A stretch of 64,000 bases of DNA from Halarcobacter sp. (GCA_963676565.1 OY781089.1:512001-576000); one strand, 5' to 3'; shown: positions 48,615 through 55,358, counted from the stretch's first letter. Notes: generated by a model from the sequence alone, not told the origin. Translations and numbers: made by a program.

Positions 48615-49085
48615 TTAACCTTTAATTCTTTGAGAGTGAGTAAGTGCTATTGCTATTGCATCTGTAATATCAAGTGGTTTTATCTCTTTTTTTATTCCAA
48701 GTAATCTTTTCACCATAAATGCAACCTGCTCTTTTTGTGCTTTTCCATTTCCTGTTACTGCTTGTTTTACCTGTAAAGGTGTATATTCTGCAAAATTTCC
48801 AAACTCTTGCAAAACTTTTAATGAAATTGCCCCTCTAAATTGGGCTAATTTTATTACTGTTTTTGGGTTAAAGGCATAAAACATATCTTCTATCGCAACT
48901 TCATCTAAATCATATTTTCTAAATATCATCTCTAAACCTTCACACATTTCAACAATTTGTTCTTGAAGGATTTTTGTTTTTATTTTCACAAGACCTGCTT
49001 CAAGTAATTTTATTTCTCTACCGTTTTTTTCAATTACTGCATATCCACAATTTCTTGTTCCAGGATCAATTCCTAAGATTTTCAC
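48615..49085 (-). CDS. ruvC: Holliday junction resolvase RuvC
   Basis: GTG start at 49085 gives [34 protein letters not shown]. Confidence 0.96.
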
Positions 49086-49185
49086 TTTTTTCACATTTTC
49101 CTTTTTTTTCATTTCACATATAAAATGTACTTAATAATGGTATTAATTCCATAAATTTTCACTTAAAGAGAAAAAGTTATTCACA
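49078..49185 (+). promoter_or_regulatory. Cluster of co-oriented DnaA boxes (candidate oriC1)
   Basis: ATTTTCACT 49078, TTTTTCACA 49087, CATTTCACA 49110, ATTTTCACT 49155, consensus TTATTCACA 49177-49185. Confidence 0.7.
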
Positions 49186-49376
49186 TAACAATAATATATA
49201 GAAAAAAATATATAAACAATAAAATTACATAGATAAATATAAGTAAATAATTATAAATCATATAATAAAATAAAAAAATAAATGATTTATAGATAATTTT
49301 TATTTTTATTTAAGTTAAGTAAGGCAATAATAATGTAAGTAATTTAATTACTTAATTTTTTTATAAGGAAAGCGGA

Positions 49377-49616
49377 ATGTTAGGATCTTTATTAGGTGGT
49401 TTATTAACTCCTGTGATCGGTTTAGTAGGTGGATTAATCTCAACTGTTGTTGATTTAGTTGGTGGATTAGTTGGTACAGTTGTAGGACTAGTTGGTGGTC
49501 TTTTAGGTGCTGTTACTGGTATCGTATCTGACGTAGTTGACTCTATTAGCATTGACGTTGATGCAGACGTAAATGTAGACGTTAACGGTGTTGACGATTG
49601 CGGAACTTGCTGCTAA
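49377..49616 (+). CDS. 79-aa Gly/Val/Leu-rich repeat peptide with acidic tail ending CGTCC; probable T1SS substrate
   Basis: SD AAGGA, biased codon use, own 3' hairpin, first gene of the T1SS cluster. Confidence 0.85.
   Translation: MLGSLLGGLLTPVIGLVGGLISTVVDLVGGLVGTVVGLVGGLLGAVTGIVSDVVDSISIDVDADVNVDVNGVDDCGTCC
49395..49526 (+). repeat. Four imperfect 33-bp (11-aa) tandem repeats
   Basis: GGLLTPVIGLV / GGLISTVVDLV / GGLVGTVVGLV / GGLLGAVTGIV. Confidence 0.9.
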
Positions 49617-49621
49617 TTATT

Positions 49622-49647
49622 TGTAAGTAGGTTTTAACCTACTTACA
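49622..49647 (+). terminator. Hairpin between the peptide gene and the T1SS genes (leaky terminator or mRNA stabiliser)
   Basis: TGTAAGTAGGT-TTTA-ACCTACTTACA, 11-bp perfect stem without a poly-T tail. Confidence 0.75.
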
Positions 49648-49677
49648 TCTCACTTAACTCTCTAATTAAGGTTTTCT

Positions 49678-51378
49678 TTGTCTTCAGAACACAAATTTTC
49701 AGAATTGAAATCTACACTTAAAAAAAATAAAAAAACGTTTTTAATTGTGGGTTTATTTAGCTTTTTAACTAACATTTTAATGTTAGTACCGCCTATTTAC
49801 ATGTTACAAATCTATGACAGAGTTATAAAAAGTAATAACGAAAACACACTTTTTGTACTTACTTTTATGATAGTTATCCTATTTATTACAATGGCACTAC
49901 TTGAGATAGTTCGTTCTCAAATACTTATAAAAATTGGTAGTAGTATAGATAATGCAATAAGTAATAGAATTTTTGATTCACTATTTCAACTAGAGCTTAT
50001 TGATCCCAAAAGTGCCAATTCATCATATTTAGATTATTTAACTAGAATAAGACAATTTATGACAGGGAAAAGTATTTTTGCTGTTTTTGATGCACCTTGG
50101 ATTACTATTTATGTGATTATTCTATTTCTTTTTCACACTGCCTTTGGAGTTTTTGCAATTATCGTGATACTTATACTATTAGTTGTAACTGTAATGAATG
50201 AAGTTGCAACATCACAAAATTTAAATGAAGCAAGTAAAAATAATATTGCATCAAATATATATATTGATGCCTCTTTAAAAAATGCAGCAGTTATTAATTC
50301 TATGGGGATGAGGGAAAATATAAGAAAAATATGGCATAAAAAATATTATGGTTTTTTAAACTTACAAAATGATGCAAGTTATAGTGCTAGTATTTGGATT
50401 AATATCTCTAAAAGTATTAGACTTATGGCCCAATCCCTTACCCTTGGTATTGGTGCTTATCTAGCAATTGGATATGAAGTTACACCAGGGACTATGATTG
50501 CAGCTTCGATAATAATGAGTAGAGCCCTATCTCCAATCGATTTAATAATTTCTGGATGGAAAGGTTTTATTGCTTACAGAACAAGTCATAAAAGAATTGA
50601 TGAATTATTAAATAAATTTCCAAAAAAAAAGAAAACTATATCTTTAAAAATTACAAATGCAGAACTTGTACTTGAAAATATAGTTGTAACTCCCCCTATG
50701 ACAAAAAATGAAACAATAAAAGGTATCTCTTTAAAAATAAAGTCTGGTAATGTTGTAGCTGTAATAGGAAAAAGTGGTGCAGGAAAATCAACTTTAATAA
50801 AAGGTATTTTAAATATTTGGCCTCTATCTGGGGGAAAAGTTAAAATCGATGGTGTTGATGTTTCAATGTTTGATAAAGTACAAATAGGTCCTCAAATTGG
50901 TTATCTTCCTCAAGACATTGAACTATTTGAAGGAACAATTAGTGAAAATATCTGTAGATTTCAAGAGCTAGATTCAGAAAAAATTGTTTCAGCTGCAAAA
51001 AAAGCTGGCGTACACGATTTAATATTGAAATTTCCTAAAGGTTATGAAACAAAGATTACTAATTCAGGGGATAGTTTATCTGGTGGACAAAAACAAAGAA
51101 TTGGCTTAGCAAGAGCAATTTATGATAATCCAAGTCTTGTGATACTAGATGAACCTAATTCAAACCTTGATAAAGAGGGTGAACAAGCTTTATTAAACAG
51201 TATAAAAAGTTTAAAAGAGAATAACACAACGGTGATAATAATTACCCATAAAGATAATATCTTAGATATTACAGATAAAGTTCTTTTGATTGAAAATGGT
51301 TTATTAAAAGATTATGGTAATACCCAAGAAGTTCTTAATAAAAATCAATTTTTTAAAGTAGACAATGATAATGTATAA
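49678..51378 (+). CDS. prtD: Type I secretion permease/ATPase, PrtD/AprD family
   Basis: PPIYMLQIYDRV, FDAPW, GKSGAGKST, GYLPQDIELFEGTI, LSGGQKQRIGLARA, LDEPNSNLD; no N-terminal C39 domain. Confidence 0.92.
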   Translation: MSSEHKFSELKSTLKKNKKTFLIVGLFSFLTNILMLVPPIYMLQIYDRVIKSNNENTLFVLTFMIVILFITMALLEIVRSQILIKIGSSIDNAISNRIFDSLFQLELIDPKSANSSYLDYLTRIRQFMTGKSIFAVFDAPWITIYVIILFLFHTAFGVFAIIVILILLVVTVMNEVATSQNLNEASKNNIASNIYIDASLKNAAVINSMGMRENIRKIWHKKYYGFLNLQNDASYSASIWINISKSIRLMAQSLTLGIGAYLAIGYEVTPGTMIAASIIMSRALSPIDLIISGWKGFIAYRTSHKRIDELLNKFPKKKKTISLKITNAELVLENIVVTPPMTKNETIKGISLKIKSGNVVAVIGKSGAGKSTLIKGILNIWPLSGGKVKIDGVDVSMFDKVQIGPQIGYLPQDIELFEGTISENICRFQELDSEKIVSAAKKAGVHDLILKFPKGYETKITNSGDSLSGGQKQRIGLARAIYDNPSLVILDEPNSNLDKEGEQALLNSIKSLKENNTTVIIITHKDNILDITDKVLLIENGLLKDYGNTQEVLNKNQFFKVDNDNV

Positions 51379-52654
51379 AGCTCCCAATGATGATTCATCT
51401 AAAATAGCTAAATTTGGTTTTAGTGTTGTAATAGTTGTGTTTATAATATTTGGAGGATGGGCAACTTTTGCTCCCCTTGCTATTAATGTAACTGCACTTG
51501 GTAAAGTATCTGCTGGATTAAATAAGAAAAAAATTCAAAGTATTGAAAGTGGTATAATCAAAACAATTTATGTAAATGATGGTGATTATGTAAAAAAAGG
51601 TCAACTATTAATTGAATTAGATGATACCCAATCAAAATCAGAATTAGATACTCAATTATTCCAATACCAAACACTATTAGCCCTAAAATCGAGACTTTTA
51701 GCACAACAAAATGGTAAAAAGACAATCACATTTGATGAGGGTGTGAAAAATAAAAAACTTATCGCTGAACAGACAGATTTATTTAATAGCACCATAGAAT
51801 CAATTAAAAAAAATAAACAAATATTAAATAAACAAGTATCACAGTTAAAAAAACGTATTGAAGCTATAAACTTCAAATTAAAAAGTAATACTTATATAAA
51901 ATCATCAATCGATGAAGAGATTGCAGAATTAGAAAAACTATATGCAAAAAAATTGATTAATAAAGTAGATTTAAGAAAATTTAAAAGGGAAGCATCCCAA
52001 CTAAGTGCTGAAATAATCAATAATGAAAAAGAGAAAACTGAATTAAAAGAGAAAATAAATGAATTATCTACAAAAATAGTACTACTTTTAAATGATTTCA
52101 AAAAAGATACTTTAGAGGAATTAACTTCTGCAACATCAAAAATCAATACTGTAAAATTAAAAATAGATTCATTAAGAAATAAATTAAATAAAACAAAAAT
52201 CTATGCACCATCTAATGGTTATATAGTAGGTGTATCAGATTATACACAAGACTCTATTATAAAAGCTGGTGCTGATATTATGGAGATTGTTCCAAAAGAT
52301 GCAGACCTTATAATTGAAGGTGCTATTAAATCCACAGATATAGATAAAGTAAAAATAGGATTAGAGGCAAATGTAGTTTTTTCTGCATACAACACCCAAA
52401 AATCTCATAAAATTCATGCAATTGTAACTTATATTTCTGCTGATACTCTTTATGATAAACAAAACCAAGAGTTCTATTATGAGATTAAATTAAAACTAAG
52501 CAAAGAGGGTAAAAAAGAGATTAAAAAATATAACTTTAATTTAGTTACAGGAATGCCTGCAGAAATAATGGTAAAAACTGGATATAGAACTGTTTTAAGT
52601 TATATGTTAAAACCTTTATTAGACAGATTTAATAGGAGTTTAAATGAAGAATAA
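51365..52654 (+). CDS. prtE: Type I secretion membrane fusion protein, HlyD/PrtE family
   Basis: GWATFAPL, IQSIESGII..V.DGD.V, long coiled coil, GMPAEIMVKTG.RT..Y..KP. Confidence 0.92.
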   Translation: MIMYKAPNDDSSKIAKFGFSVVIVVFIIFGGWATFAPLAINVTALGKVSAGLNKKKIQSIESGIIKTIYVNDGDYVKKGQLLIELDDTQSKSELDTQLFQYQTLLALKSRLLAQQNGKKTITFDEGVKNKKLIAEQTDLFNSTIESIKKNKQILNKQVSQLKKRIEAINFKLKSNTYIKSSIDEEIAELEKLYAKKLINKVDLRKFKREASQLSAEIINNEKEKTELKEKINELSTKIVLLLNDFKKDTLEELTSATSKINTVKLKIDSLRNKLNKTKIYAPSNGYIVGVSDYTQDSIIKAGADIMEIVPKDADLIIEGAIKSTDIDKVKIGLEANVVFSAYNTQKSHKIHAIVTYISADTLYDKQNQEFYYEIKLKLSKEGKKEIKKYNFNLVTGMPAEIMVKTGYRTVLSYMLKPLLDRFNRSLNEE

Positions 52655-53978
52655 CTTATATTTAATAAGTTTTTTACTTCTTTTTATTCCATTTAAAATA
52701 TATGCATTAGAGACTTTAAAATTTTCAAAAGCATATGAATTATCTTTGCAAAATTCTAAAAGAATACAATCTTTAGAATATAAATTAAAAGCAAATCATG
52801 AGAATCTGAATCAGGTTAGATCTATGATGTTACCTGAGGTTAATTTTTATGGATCATACACCCAAAATAATTATAAGGATATCCCTGTAAGTAATATATT
52901 TAAAGTAGATATAAAACAAAAAGTTAAAAACTATAATATTATTTTAAAACAATCCCTTTTTGATAGAAATCTTGCTTCAAAAATGGATATTGAAAAATCT
53001 AAATATGAATCTTATAGAAATGATTTAGATATAGAAAAACAAAAATTAGCAAAAGAGCTTTTAGATATATATTTAGCTCTTATAAAATCAAAAAATAAGA
53101 TAACAATGTTATCAAAATTTAAAGAGTACTTGGACTCTAAAAAAGAGCTTTTAAAGACTAGATATGAGATGGACTTATCCACAATTTCGGAGCTTATAAC
53201 TGTTGAATCAGATTTTAACCAAACTAACATTGACTTAGAAAAAGAGAAAGTTTTATTTAAAGTAAATAAAGAAAAACTAATAAGCTATATGGGAGAGGGA
53301 CTTGATTTTGAAATACCAGGATTAGATGATATTGTATTTACCTCTGATAATCTAAAAAAGATTAGAAGAAATTTAGTAAAAATTGATGAAATATATTCAA
53401 ATTTACAAGTTGATAAACTTGAGAATATTATGCAAATGCATAAGCATGAATTAGAAGATGCACAAAATAGTCATCTGCCAAAACTAAGTTTAAATCTTAA
53501 ATATACAAAAAATGTATCTGTAGAAAATAGTTATACTTCAGATTCTAGTTATAAAGAAAATAGAGAATTTTCTATAAATCTTTTAATTCCTTTGTATAAA
53601 GGGGGATATTATACATCATTGGAGAGAGCTTCAAAACTAAATATCAAGTCTTCACAGAAAGATATCGAAGCTTTACTTGATGATTTAAAACTCCAATACA
53701 AAGAAACTCGTGCAAATATAAACTCTGCAATTAGATCTATTTCTCTTTATGAAAAAGCTTTAGAAGCGGCAGTACTAACAAAAGATATAGTAAACAAAGA
53801 GTTCTCGCACGGTATAAAAAGTATACTCGATGTACAAGAAGCAGAGTATAAAATAACGCAAATAAAAGATAAATCTATTGACAATGTCACAACCTTAGTT
53901 GACAACTATTTAGCCTTTCTAACACTAACAAACCATTTTGATGCACTTGAAGTAATTGATTCTATAATTAAAAATTAA
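52644..53978 (+). CDS. TolC-family outer-membrane secretion channel
   Basis: Signal peptide, LPEVNF, LKQSLFD, LPKLSL, IPLYKGG, GIKSILDV. Confidence 0.88.
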   Translation: MKNNLYLISFLLLFIPFKIYALETLKFSKAYELSLQNSKRIQSLEYKLKANHENLNQVRSMMLPEVNFYGSYTQNNYKDIPVSNIFKVDIKQKVKNYNIILKQSLFDRNLASKMDIEKSKYESYRNDLDIEKQKLAKELLDIYLALIKSKNKITMLSKFKEYLDSKKELLKTRYEMDLSTISELITVESDFNQTNIDLEKEKVLFKVNKEKLISYMGEGLDFEIPGLDDIVFTSDNLKKIRRNLVKIDEIYSNLQVDKLENIMQMHKHELEDAQNSHLPKLSLNLKYTKNVSVENSYTSDSSYKENREFSINLLIPLYKGGYYTSLERASKLNIKSSQKDIEALLDDLKLQYKETRANINSAIRSISLYEKALEAAVLTKDIVNKEFSHGIKSILDVQEAEYKITQIKDKSIDNVTTLVDNYLAFLTLTNHFDALEVIDSIIKN

Positions 53979-54050
53979 TATTTAATATTTTTAAATTTAT
54001 ATTAATTTAGATATAATCTTTAGAATTTATATACAAAGAGTACGGTTTTA

Positions 54051-55358
54051 ATGACAAGTAAAGAGTTTTTACATATTATAGAAAAAGAAGCACATCCAGC
54101 TGATTACAAAAGATACCTAAAACAACTATCATACAAAAAAATTTCTTCTGATGACAAATTAGCAGTTTTTGAAGTATCAAATAAGTATGTAGGGGCATGG
54201 ATTAAAAGTAAATATACACAAATTATACAACACTGCTTTGAGATATACGATGGCACTAAACCTGACATTGAAATAAAAATTGCAGGTGAGAAGAAAAGTA
54301 AAAAAGAGATTATTTCTGAAAAAGCCAAAAATGAAGCTACTGAAAGTACTATATTAAACCCTTCATATACTTTTGATTCTTTCGTAGTGGGAAGTTCCAA
54401 CCAAATGGCATATAATGCCTCTTTGGCAGTTGCTCAAAAACCTGGTGTTCAATACAATCCATTATTTATTTATGGTGGAACAGGTCTAGGGAAAACTCAC
54501 CTTTTACAAGCAATTGGTAATGATGCCATTGAAAAAGGTAAAACAATTATTTATGTAACTATTGAACAGTTTATGAATGATTTTACATTTTCAATTAAAA
54601 ATAAAAATATGGAACACTTTAGAAGTAAATATAGAAAATGCGATGTTTTACTAATCGATGATATTCAATTTTTATCTGGAAAAGAACAAACTCAAGAAGA
54701 GTTTTTTCACACCTTTAATGAATTACATAATGCAAAAAAACAAATTGTTATGACGAGTGATAGAATACCTTCACAAATTGCAGGACTTGTGGATAGATTA
54801 AAATCAAGGTTTGAATGGGGTTTAACGGCAGATATTCAATTACCTGGACTTGAAACAAAAATTGCTATTATTGAAAAGAAAAGTGAACTTAATGGAATCC
54901 ATTTAAGTAGAGAGATTATTAACTATATTGCAACAAACCTTGATAACTCTATTAGAGAGATTGAAGGGGTATTAATTAGAATTAATGCTAGTGCTTCTTT
55001 ATTAAATCAAGAGATAAATTTAGAGTTAGCTCAAAATTTATTAAAAGAACAAATTAAAGAAAAAAAGGAAAATATCAAACTTCCTGATATAATTACCCTT
55101 GTAGCAAACGAATTAAATATTAAACCAAGTGATATTAAGTCTAAAAAGAGAACTGCAACAGTAGCAAATGCAAGAAGAGTAGTTATCTATTTAGCAAGAG
55201 AATTAACACACAACTCTATGCCTGATATAGCAAAATTTTTAGGAATGAAAGATCATAGTTCTATTTCTAAAAATATTCAAAAGACAAATGAGTTAATAGA
55301 AACAGATGAAAACTTCAAATTAATCATCCAAAATTTGAAGAATAAAATCATAAATTAG
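54051..55358 (+). CDS. dnaA: Chromosomal replication initiator DnaA
   Basis: YNPLFIYGGTGLGKTHLL, LLIDDIQF, QEEFFHTFN, RLKSRFEWGL, KDHSS; TATAAT at 54012-54017 upstream. Confidence 0.99.
   Translation: MTSKEFLHIIEKEAHPADYKRYLKQLSYKKISSDDKLAVFEVSNKYVGAWIKSKYTQIIQHCFEIYDGTKPDIEIKIAGEKKSKKEIISEKAKNEATESTILNPSYTFDSFVVGSSNQMAYNASLAVAQKPGVQYNPLFIYGGTGLGKTHLLQAIGNDAIEKGKTIIYVTIEQFMNDFTFSIKNKNMEHFRSKYRKCDVLLIDDIQFLSGKEQTQEEFFHTFNELHNAKKQIVMTSDRIPSQIAGLVDRLKSRFEWGLTADIQLPGLETKIAIIEKKSELNGIHLSREIINYIATNLDNSIREIEGVLIRINASASLLNQEINLELAQNLLKEQIKEKKENIKLPDIITLVANELNIKPSDIKSKKRTATVANARRVVIYLARELTHNSMPDIAKFLGMKDHSSISKNIQKTNELIETDENFKLIIQNLKNKIIN

Follow-up and report, generated by a model that had tools for sequence, protein, structure and literature searches.

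A Leaderless Glycine-Zipper Peptide as Putative Cargo of a PrtD-Type Type I Secretion System in Halarcobacter

A Four-Gene Locus Headed by a Small Peptide Gene

This report concerns a four-gene locus in a 64,000-nucleotide stretch of DNA from Halarcobacter sp. (GCA_963676565.1 OY781089.1:512001-576000), called the window throughout and numbered from its first letter, in which a 79-codon open reading frame (ORF) stands at the head of the three genes of a type I secretion system (T1SS). A first-pass annotation, made from the DNA alone, had described this ORF as heading a cluster of PrtD, PrtE and TolC genes, and the quoted sequence is exactly that encoded by the ORF. The locus comprises the following features:

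49377..49616, plus strand: gene of a 79-amino-acid leaderless glycine-zipper peptide, the putative T1SS cargo (79-codon ORF)
49622..49647, plus strand: perfect 11-bp hairpin, 5 nucleotides past the peptide stop codon (-14.6 kcal/mol, z -6.6)
49678..51378, plus strand: PrtD/SapD-type T1SS ATP-binding cassette (ABC) transporter, 566 amino acids (TIGR01842)
51365..52654, plus strand: HlyD-family T1SS periplasmic adaptor, 429 amino acids (TIGR01843; Pfam HlyD_3)
52644..53978, plus strand: TolC-type outer-membrane channel, 444 amino acids (Pfam OEP)

The three transport genes have the make-up of a PrtD-subfamily T1SS, that is, an ABC transporter without a C39 peptidase domain together with a HlyD adaptor and a TolC-type factor. 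The transporter scores 683 bits on TIGR01842 type_I_sec_PrtD (cut-off 510), its best relative of solved structure is the Aquifex PrtD 5L22 (E 4.4e-150, full length), and in PADLOC it draws generic ATPase matches only. It has neither a C39 nor a C39-like N-terminal domain, because the frame open to it is only 570 amino acids long, just four codons beyond the gene. The adaptor (336 bits on TIGR01843, cut-off 208) is encoded by a gene that overlaps the transporter gene by 14 nucleotides and is itself overlapped by 11 nucleotides by the TolC-type gene, whose product matches Pfam OEP in two stretches (133 bits), reaches 131 bits on TIGR01844, under that model's cut-off of 225, and finds only itself in its own genome (tblastn, E 1e-8). 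The peptide gene is separated from the transporter gene by 61 nucleotides and is preceded by an AAGGA motif (49365-49369), 7 nucleotides ahead of its ATG. No large cargo gene was found adjoining the cassette, in keeping with the first-pass annotation; its flanks are ruvC and dnaA.

The Peptide and Its Family

Conservation argues that the 79-codon ORF is a real gene under purifying selection and not a chance ORF, because it is kept in seven loci, because the ratio of nonsynonymous to synonymous polymorphism (pN/pS) is 0.14-0.32 in the sense frame of the three Halarcobacter copies, and because the overlapping antisense ORF has lost its start codon in two of those three copies. The seven loci belong to five Arcobacteraceae species genomes and two metagenome contigs. 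Six-frame searches of 184 Arcobacteraceae species genomes recovered the peptide in five, namely the window's own, two other Halarcobacter species (95% and 94% identity) and one species in each of two further genera of the family.

All members are 76-79 amino acids long and share an N-terminal LGxLLGGLLxPV motif. Among the six aligned members, M1, G3, L5, L6, G7, L10 and P12 are invariant at the N-terminus, as are scattered glycines and valines of the core and, in the tail, V65, N66, D68, N70 and G71; the invariant tail residues spell VNxDxNG, the family tail being acidic with a conserved [DN][VI]x[VI]NG motif, and lysine, arginine and histidine are absent from all six. The first-pass annotation had put weight on the terminal CGTCC, which is indeed present in the window, yet this ending is confined to the three Halarcobacter species and is not a feature of the family, whose other members end in NCEIA (one cysteine), NVELA or VGGLA (zero cysteines each). 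The G026 peptide, from another genus, thus has a single cysteine, and those of G194 and of L088/P0007 have none. Comparison of the members points to the acidic tail and its short conserved motif, and not to CGTCC, as the family's distinguishing feature, and the disulfide-linked sheath once envisaged for this protein has been dropped, cysteine not being conserved.

Searches with the peptide gave no match in Pfam, NCBIfam, PADLOC or the PDB sequences and no usable match in the ESM Atlas, so that it falls in no curated family. The exact window, G194 and G026 peptide sequences are absent from a 15-billion-protein collection, and tblastn of the window peptide and of a more distant relative, P0001, against plasmids gave no match. 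A profile search of 1.84 billion representatives, judged by the sequences of 17 matches, yielded nothing beyond P0001, P0003 and P0007 except look-alikes of the repeat period, namely tape-measure proteins of phages and low-complexity repeats of eukaryotes; among those 17 sequences the peptide never occurs fused or in a longer version. Two of the matches, P0005 and P0010 (E 3e-8 and 2.5e-6), are apparently phage tail tape-measure proteins that score through hydrophobic 11-residue repeats of their own, and by their sequences they are look-alikes of the period and not relatives.

The composition of the peptide is as striking as first described, with 18 valines, 16 glycines, 12 leucines and 9 aspartates, and with no lysine, arginine, histidine, glutamate, glutamine, phenylalanine, tryptophan or tyrosine. 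The 11-residue periodicity that had been noted is likewise borne out: self-identity is 0.50 at a lag of 11 and 0.42 at a lag of 22, and besides lag 22 there are secondary peaks at 4, 7, 15 and 18, as is characteristic of an 11/3 helix. Wound in this way, the 14 glycines of the core would gather on one face (R = 0.73, a value equalled by none of 10,000 shuffles). Residues 29, 33 and 40 each begin a GxxxGxxxG motif, no break occurs between D26 and D52, and the core has a grand average of hydropathy of 1.83. The peptide can be modelled as a hydrophobic hendecad helix (residues 1-51) followed by a flexible, strongly acidic tail (residues 52-79). An AlphaFold2 model built from the small family alignment predicts a single helix over residues 2-57 and a tail of low confidence, with mean predicted local distance difference test (pLDDT) values of 83-88 in the blocks covering residues 11-40, of 50 and 47 in the last two ten-residue blocks, and below 50 at residues 66-74 and 77-79; at a whole-chain mean of 70.5 the model is moderately reliable only. 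Judged from its sequence alone the peptide appears to lack a Sec signal, and it shows no RTX repeats (the GGxGxD nonapeptide, Pfam PF00353) at E values of up to 10, as had been noted, nor does the whole genome contain any.

A polar residue, D or N, occupies position 26 (49452-49454) in all lineages, mid-way along the 50-residue hydrophobic stretch, leaving on either side a segment long enough to span a membrane. A hairpin of two helices in membranes is thereby hinted at, though the AlphaFold2 model is a single helix.

Co-Occurrence, Cassette Boundaries and Expression Signals

The first-pass annotation had proposed a survey of PrtD homologues, and its outcome is twofold: the peptide accompanies every PrtD of at least 64% identity, these being found in exactly the five of the 184 genomes that carry the peptide, and it is absent from 17 other genomes, whose PrtD homologues reach 52-59% only. 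The distance from the peptide stop codon to the PrtD start is 59-67 nucleotides in all seven loci. This strict co-occurrence, together with the four-gene cassette described below, makes the peptide the best candidate cargo of the adjacent T1SS, as was first suggested.

The bounds of the cassette are set by comparison with relatives that do not have it, and involve four further features:

48615-49112, minus strand: ruvC, left flank
49113..49376, plus strand: intergenic region between ruvC and the peptide gene, consisting of a DnaA-box-like end and then AT-rich cassette DNA
53979..54050, plus strand: right cassette junction, a 72-bp spacer before dnaA with the promoter-proximal sequence of that gene, which cassette-less relatives share
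54051-55358: dnaA, right flank, with dnaN and gyrB beyond it

Sixteen loci of the same genus do not have the cassette, and in these the divergently oriented ruvC and dnaA are neighbours with about 170-200 bp between them; in the window this distance is 4.9 kb. The left part of 49113..49376 aligns with the ruvC-dnaA spacer of the cassette-less relatives, and TTTAGATATAATCT...TATA(T/C)AAAGAGT precedes dnaA in those relatives and in the window alike. Since the window retains the left and right parts of this spacer with the four genes in between, the four genes can be regarded as one cassette. The same position recurs elsewhere, with ruvC upstream in six of the seven loci (the seventh contig ends before that point) and dnaA following the TolC gene in the two loci traced to that point, the window and L052.

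Three TTCAC-type motifs next to ruvC, which we take to be DnaA-box-like, are kept in the window; the TTATTCACnGGTGAAAAA pair present in the spacer of the cassette-less relatives is not. GC skew changes sign at about 49000, and the peptide gene would be the first leading-strand gene beside the likely origin; with the cassette lying within the ruvC-dnaA spacer, its expression might be tied to gene dosage or to DnaA binding. The DnaA-box-like pattern TWWTTCAC occurs at 36 sites in the window (22.7 +/- 4.9 expected; 1 of 100 shuffles reaches 36), and because these sites are spread over the whole window it cannot by itself mark the origin.

Between genera the proteins of the cassette appear to have diverged roughly in step with those of the flanking genes. 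Identities between the window and G026 are as follows:

DnaA: 88%
RuvC: 86%
PrtD: 74%
HlyD: 70%
PurN: 62%
peptide: 54%
TolC: 51%

Peptide identities of 52-59% stand against 64-76% for PrtD. On sequence grounds this divergence fits either an old presence with repeated loss or an old transfer.

The hairpin that follows the peptide gene is unusually stable, none of 200 shuffles being as stable, and hairpins of -14.1 to -15.9 kcal/mol stand at the same spot in all six loci that were folded, with stems that differ by lineage; no shuffle of the 200 matches the hairpin of any of the six loci. A strict terminator scan found no U-tail after the window hairpin, and a U run follows it in the G194 lineage. 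The hairpin is probably an intercistronic attenuator or a stabiliser of the mRNA 3' end, and its conservation suggests that the peptide mRNA would exceed that of the transporter. Upstream of the gene, the AT-rich cassette DNA offers an ATAAT-type -10 candidate, and a palindrome (49336-49354) lies at the same place in all lineages; folded as RNA, the palindrome does not exceed shuffled sequences in stability (z -0.1 to -1.1), and it may be an operator, or nothing. An Rfam search of 48900-54200 gave no match at E up to 1. Four oligo-dT RNA runs contained 0, 2, 0 and 0 matching reads, and as these runs do not contain this organism they are no test of expression.

Relatives Behind Double-Glycine Leaders

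The only other true sequence relatives of the peptide are small, uncharacterised betaproteobacterial proteins (44 clusters, from Azonexus, Dechloromonas, Thiobacillus, Aquariibacter and others), which come from another phylum than the window peptide. They begin with MAIQELxKxEIxxVSGG, continue with (A)LDLGGLLGGxLNPVLGLVGGLL and go on in further 11-residue repeats. Counted back from the GG, positions -4, -7, -12 and -15 within their first 17 residues are hydrophobic, which we take to be the pattern of a double-glycine leader; 3 of 23 match Pfam Bacteriocin_IIc weakly (best E 4.6e-4), and two of the clusters carry the UniRef name "Bacteriocin". Like the window peptide, they have a mature start of the form LGGLLGGxLxPVxGLVGGL and 11-residue repeats of glycine, leucine and valine, and they are modelled with one long core helix, which in P0001 is preceded by a short leader helix and a break at the GG site. 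Unlike it, they possess the 17-residue leader, lack the acidic tail, and have short basic or polar ends, sometimes with cysteine.

Alignment of the two families with hhalign gives a probability of 98.6% (E 1.4e-15, 50 columns), and the match begins at residue 2 of the window peptide, which corresponds to the first residues after the leader in the relatives; with 20 column shuffles the probability is 1.1% or less. Common descent of the peptide core is likely on these sequence comparisons. The contrast that the first-pass annotation drew with double-glycine export through C39 transporters therefore turns out to be apt, since relatives exist with the same core behind just such a leader. It is tempting to see here an exchange of export signals, with the same core leaving the cell by way of a cleaved double-glycine leader plus a peptidase transporter in Betaproteobacteria and of an uncleaved acidic tail of about 25 residues plus a PrtD/SapD-type system in Arcobacteraceae; this we put forward only tentatively, as an idea that may well prove wrong.

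Comparison with Known Secreted Peptides and T1SS Cargo

The nearest functional parallels are CdzC and CdzD of the contact-dependent bacteriocin system of Caulobacter crescentus (Garcia-Bayona et al. 2017), with which the window peptide was compared by description and not by sequence. These proteins form heat- and sodium dodecyl sulfate-stable aggregates on the surface of the producer, kill on contact and damage the target membrane (PMC5380434). They are, like the window peptide, small (84-86 amino acids), very hydrophobic and furnished with extended glycine zippers, they depend, as is proposed here, on a T1SS encoded alongside, and, as in this cassette, no modifying enzymes are described in the cdz cluster (PMC5380434). 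There are also differences. Cdz-like proteins have an N-terminal leader ending in G[G/A/S], whereas the window peptide begins directly with its core; the Cdz system consists of two peptides and an essential three-transmembrane immunity protein, CdzI, whereas the cassette has a single peptide and lacks an immunity gene; the cdz cluster has no TolC gene, whereas this cassette has its own; and the ends of Cdz-like proteins are given as "short charged or polar", whereas the window tail, charged as well, is 28 residues long, acidic and equipped with its own conserved motif (PMC5380434). Set against the published description of Cdz-like proteins, the peptide falls within the length range of 60-151 residues and has the glycine zipper, but it has no G[G/A/S] leader, the GG at residues 7-8 lying inside the conserved mature motif.

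Class II microcins (MccV type) resemble the window peptide in being secreted, smaller than 10 kDa and rich in glycine and hydrophobic residues (PMC12219008, PMC13188072), and one of them, MccAB1 of Acinetobacter baumannii, is described as self-assembling into amyloid fibres that build biofilm (PMC13188072). Microcins carry a double-glycine signal of 15-18 amino acids, with GG, GA or GS at its end, that is cut by a C39 transporter, both of which are absent at the window locus. Cdz and microcin systems further have an adjoining membrane immunity protein, a small one in the case of microcins (PMC5380434; PMC13188072), and the window cassette has none, though an immunity gene may lie elsewhere in the genome. 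By analogy, the window peptide may work like the Cdz proteins and microcins without being a member of either group, given that the leader, the peptidase transporter and an adjacent immunity gene are all absent. At the same time these precedents remove part of the novelty first attributed to the locus, which had been presented as a system, and as a self-assembling secreted peptide, of an undescribed kind: surface aggregators with glycine zippers that leave through a T1SS, as well as an amyloid microcin, are already in print (PMC5380434; PMC13188072).

The exporter itself has closer counterparts. The T1SS of PrtD, HasD, LipB and SapD share with that of the window an ABC transporter without an N-terminal peptidase or peptidase-like domain, the N-terminal domain being described in a review as absent from HasD, LipB and PrtD, and PrtD is reported there to have a narrow channel for unfolded cargo with a highly basic cytosolic bowl at its entry (PMC8277102). 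By analogy, an unstructured polyanionic peptide tail is a plausible ligand of such a bowl, and a transporter of the type that has no C39 domain fits an uncleaved C-terminal signal on the peptide. PrtD-type cargo (metalloproteases, the HasA hemophore, the S-layer proteins of Campylobacter fetus) is acidic, as is the window peptide, yet the known examples are folded proteins of roughly 190 amino acids or more, a figure that derives from the size of HasA, whereas the window peptide has 79 residues, about 50 of which are membrane-like helix. The uncleaved C-terminal signal of such cargo closes with an acidic residue and, after it, hydrophobic ones, a motif reportedly described by Ghigo and Wandersman in 1994. 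The window locus further differs from other PrtD/SapD-type systems in having neither a SapC gene nor RTX repeats.

The staphylococcal phenol-soluble modulins, leaderless helical peptides that serve as surfactant, cytolysin and amyloid, offer a further comparison. Together with their ABC exporter Pmt they resemble the cassette in being leaderless, in having a dedicated exporter and in lacking a separate immunity protein, and they differ in sharing no homology with the window peptide, in their Gram-positive host, in the charged residues of their amphipathic helices, and in that Pmt is not a tripartite T1SS.

A Proposed Function and Its Alternatives

The following course of events can be envisioned. 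Transcription of the peptide gene would yield a short mRNA in large amounts, most of it stopping at the 3' hairpin, with read-through supplying the transporter genes. The uncleaved acidic tail at the C-terminus would mark the unfolded peptide for the C39-less ABC transporter, which would thread it out in one step via the adaptor and TolC. Outside the cell the hydrophobic helices would pack through their glycine faces and either stay as aggregates on the surface of the producer or insert into membranes, possibly as two-helix hairpins. That the 79-amino-acid peptide is exported cargo of the adjacent T1SS we consider probable. The whole of this reading, in which a glycine-zipper peptide of the Cdz or microcin sort is a dedicated cargo and an uncleaved C-terminal signal with a PrtD/SapD-type exporter stands in for the N-terminal leader and its peptidase transporter, we hold with less assurance, as standing a little better than an even chance. 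Given export, the balance between an antagonistic, membrane-damaging role and a purely structural one is close, tilting slightly toward the former.

Several observations weigh against the reading as a whole. The immunity gene is missing, and in both lineages in which both ends of the cassette are visible (the window and L052) the cassette has four genes, with spacers of 61-77 bp that hold no small ORF. The 50-residue hydrophobic stretch could insert into the producer's own inner membrane, and the peptide's net charge near -9 is unlike that of most membrane-active peptides. With regard to descent, the relatives' alignment, when reversed, still scores 51.5 (96.6%, E 6e-10), where the true orientation scores 77.2; much of the hhalign signal therefore appears to come from a shared quasi-palindromic repeat, and convergence is possible. 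Finally, in a tree of PrtD proteins, the SapC-linked clade is supported (96/93), yet the peptide-linked proteins stay in an open polytomy and do not form one clade.

What speaks most against a toxin is that the immunity gene is missing, and because of this a structural, surfactant-like role is nearly as likely. In its purest form this alternative holds that the peptide is an exported, non-toxic structural amphiphile, one that coats the surface, acts as a surfactant or serves as scaffold of a biofilm or amyloid, for which no immunity gene would be needed and none is present in the four-gene cassette. A leaderless peptide with a dedicated exporter, a hydrophobic core and an acidic tail would suit such a part, as would the 3' hairpin, which suggests a short transcript in excess over that of the transporter, and class II microcins can build biofilm as amyloid fibres apart from killing (PMC13188072). 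However, the patchy spread of the peptide (5 of 184 species) and its fast divergence relative to PrtD fit a competition factor at least as well, and the nearest sequence relatives bear bacteriocin-type leaders. Taken by itself, we see the purely structural account as a serious though less probable possibility.

A second alternative would make the peptide not cargo at all but an accessory or regulatory subunit of the T1SS, lodged in the inner membrane and encoded in the position of sapC, with a larger, unlinked protein as the exported substrate. The core is hydrophobic enough for insertion on its own, and an accessory gene does occupy this position in paralogous systems. The PrtD homologues at 52-59% identity belong to a sapCDEF-like arrangement, which we take to be that of the S-layer secretion genes of C. 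fetus, and five such clusters (54-56% identity) were examined. In four of the five, a gene of about 455 codons (455-460), a fusion in which an IS200-like Y1 transposase domain precedes a SapC domain, lies directly before PrtD (for example L098:12695-14065, minus strand, and L099:11862-13286, plus strand), the fusion having been established by Pfam scan in one of the four (G016) and in a 474-amino-acid copy in G047, and by sequence likeness in the others. In the G047 cluster a plain SapC of 233 amino acids stands directly before PrtD, and the 474-amino-acid fusion lies alongside on the other strand. HlyD follows PrtD in all five clusters, and TolC follows in both loci read that far.

Candidates for a larger substrate also exist, in that the genome encodes two orphan T1SS-type proteins of 1,490 and 5,115 amino acids that have no neighbouring exporter, and the former has homologues in both other cassette-bearing Halarcobacter species. 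The 1,490-amino-acid protein was nevertheless rejected as a hidden cargo, because a homologue occurs in the cassette-less G003 and none was found in the cassette-bearing G194, and at their C-termini the two orphans are similar to the giant proteins served by three HlyB-like systems of the same genome. The absence of lysine, arginine and histidine from every member also conflicts with the positive-inside rule, which is well established for membrane proteins, and the conserved acidic tail with its T1SS-like end would be left unexplained. An unlinked larger cargo is thus possible, but nothing points to one, and we consider the accessory-subunit account unlikely.

The last alternative, a precursor of a modified peptide with CGTCC as the site of a thioether, thiazole or disulfide, draws on the three cysteines among the last five residues in three Halarcobacter species and was dropped as highly improbable, since the relatives have one cysteine or none, no modifying enzyme lies within the cassette bounds set by the cassette-less relatives, and there is no leader peptide.

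If the exchange of export signals suggested above is true, no natural T1SS cargo with a C-terminal signal would be smaller than this peptide, which, hydrophobic as it is, would be secreted with no need for an immunity protein. The rules of the C-terminal signal of T1SS are poorly defined and the known cargo is large, and a natural cargo of 79 residues, whose tail spans about 25 of them and has a small conserved motif, would offer a minimal model for signal recognition by transporters without a peptidase. The four-gene cassette may encode a trait for competition or surface building in marine and wastewater Arcobacteraceae. In the literature searched, no paper was found that links a PrtD-type system to a leaderless glycine-zipper peptide or names Arcobacteraceae in this context. 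Published searches for microcins and Cdz-like proteins are keyed to a double-glycine signal at the N-terminus (PMC12219008; PMC5380434), and leaderless peptides would be missed by pipelines of this kind because the N-terminal signal is what they screen.

Further T1SS Genes and a Lead on Habitat

One of the sapCDEF-like loci contains, upstream of the SapC gene, genes for a trypsin/Calx-beta protein of 409 amino acids that ends in DDFFIA and a protein of 829 amino acids that ends in DDNIA, and these ends resemble, by sequence, EIA and ELA, in which members of the peptide family end, and fit the acidic-then-hydrophobic pattern of PrtD-type cargo.

Three further T1SS pairs are present in the genome, each consisting of a HlyB-like ABC transporter of about 725 amino acids and a HlyD protein and each lying beside a giant protein. 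In two of the three giants the C-terminus consists of acidic and hydrophobic residues, for example LIDEDVSIDPDL. The three loci and the gene of the shorter orphan protein are located as follows:

G000:C1:255120-274104: HlyB-like T1SS with a giant protein of 4,249 amino acids
G000:C1:1903206-1925027: HlyB-like T1SS with a giant protein of 5,118 amino acids
G000:C1:2975432-2993874: HlyB-like T1SS with a giant protein of 4,122 amino acids
G000:C1:3021460-3025932, minus strand: 1,490-amino-acid orphan protein (L090) with tandem repeats of about 147 amino acids

Within the 1,490-amino-acid protein, four 179-residue stretches, spaced 147 residues apart, are 99-100% identical to one another, a fifth copy is 91% identical, and the C-terminus, LLIDQDITVI, is T1SS-like; its homologue in G010 is on the second contig.

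Public sequencing runs give a lead on habitat only: word matches to 49113-51400 are listed in 20 runs from 15 studies, among them runs labelled with three organisms and metagenomes from wastewater, bioreactors and salt marsh.

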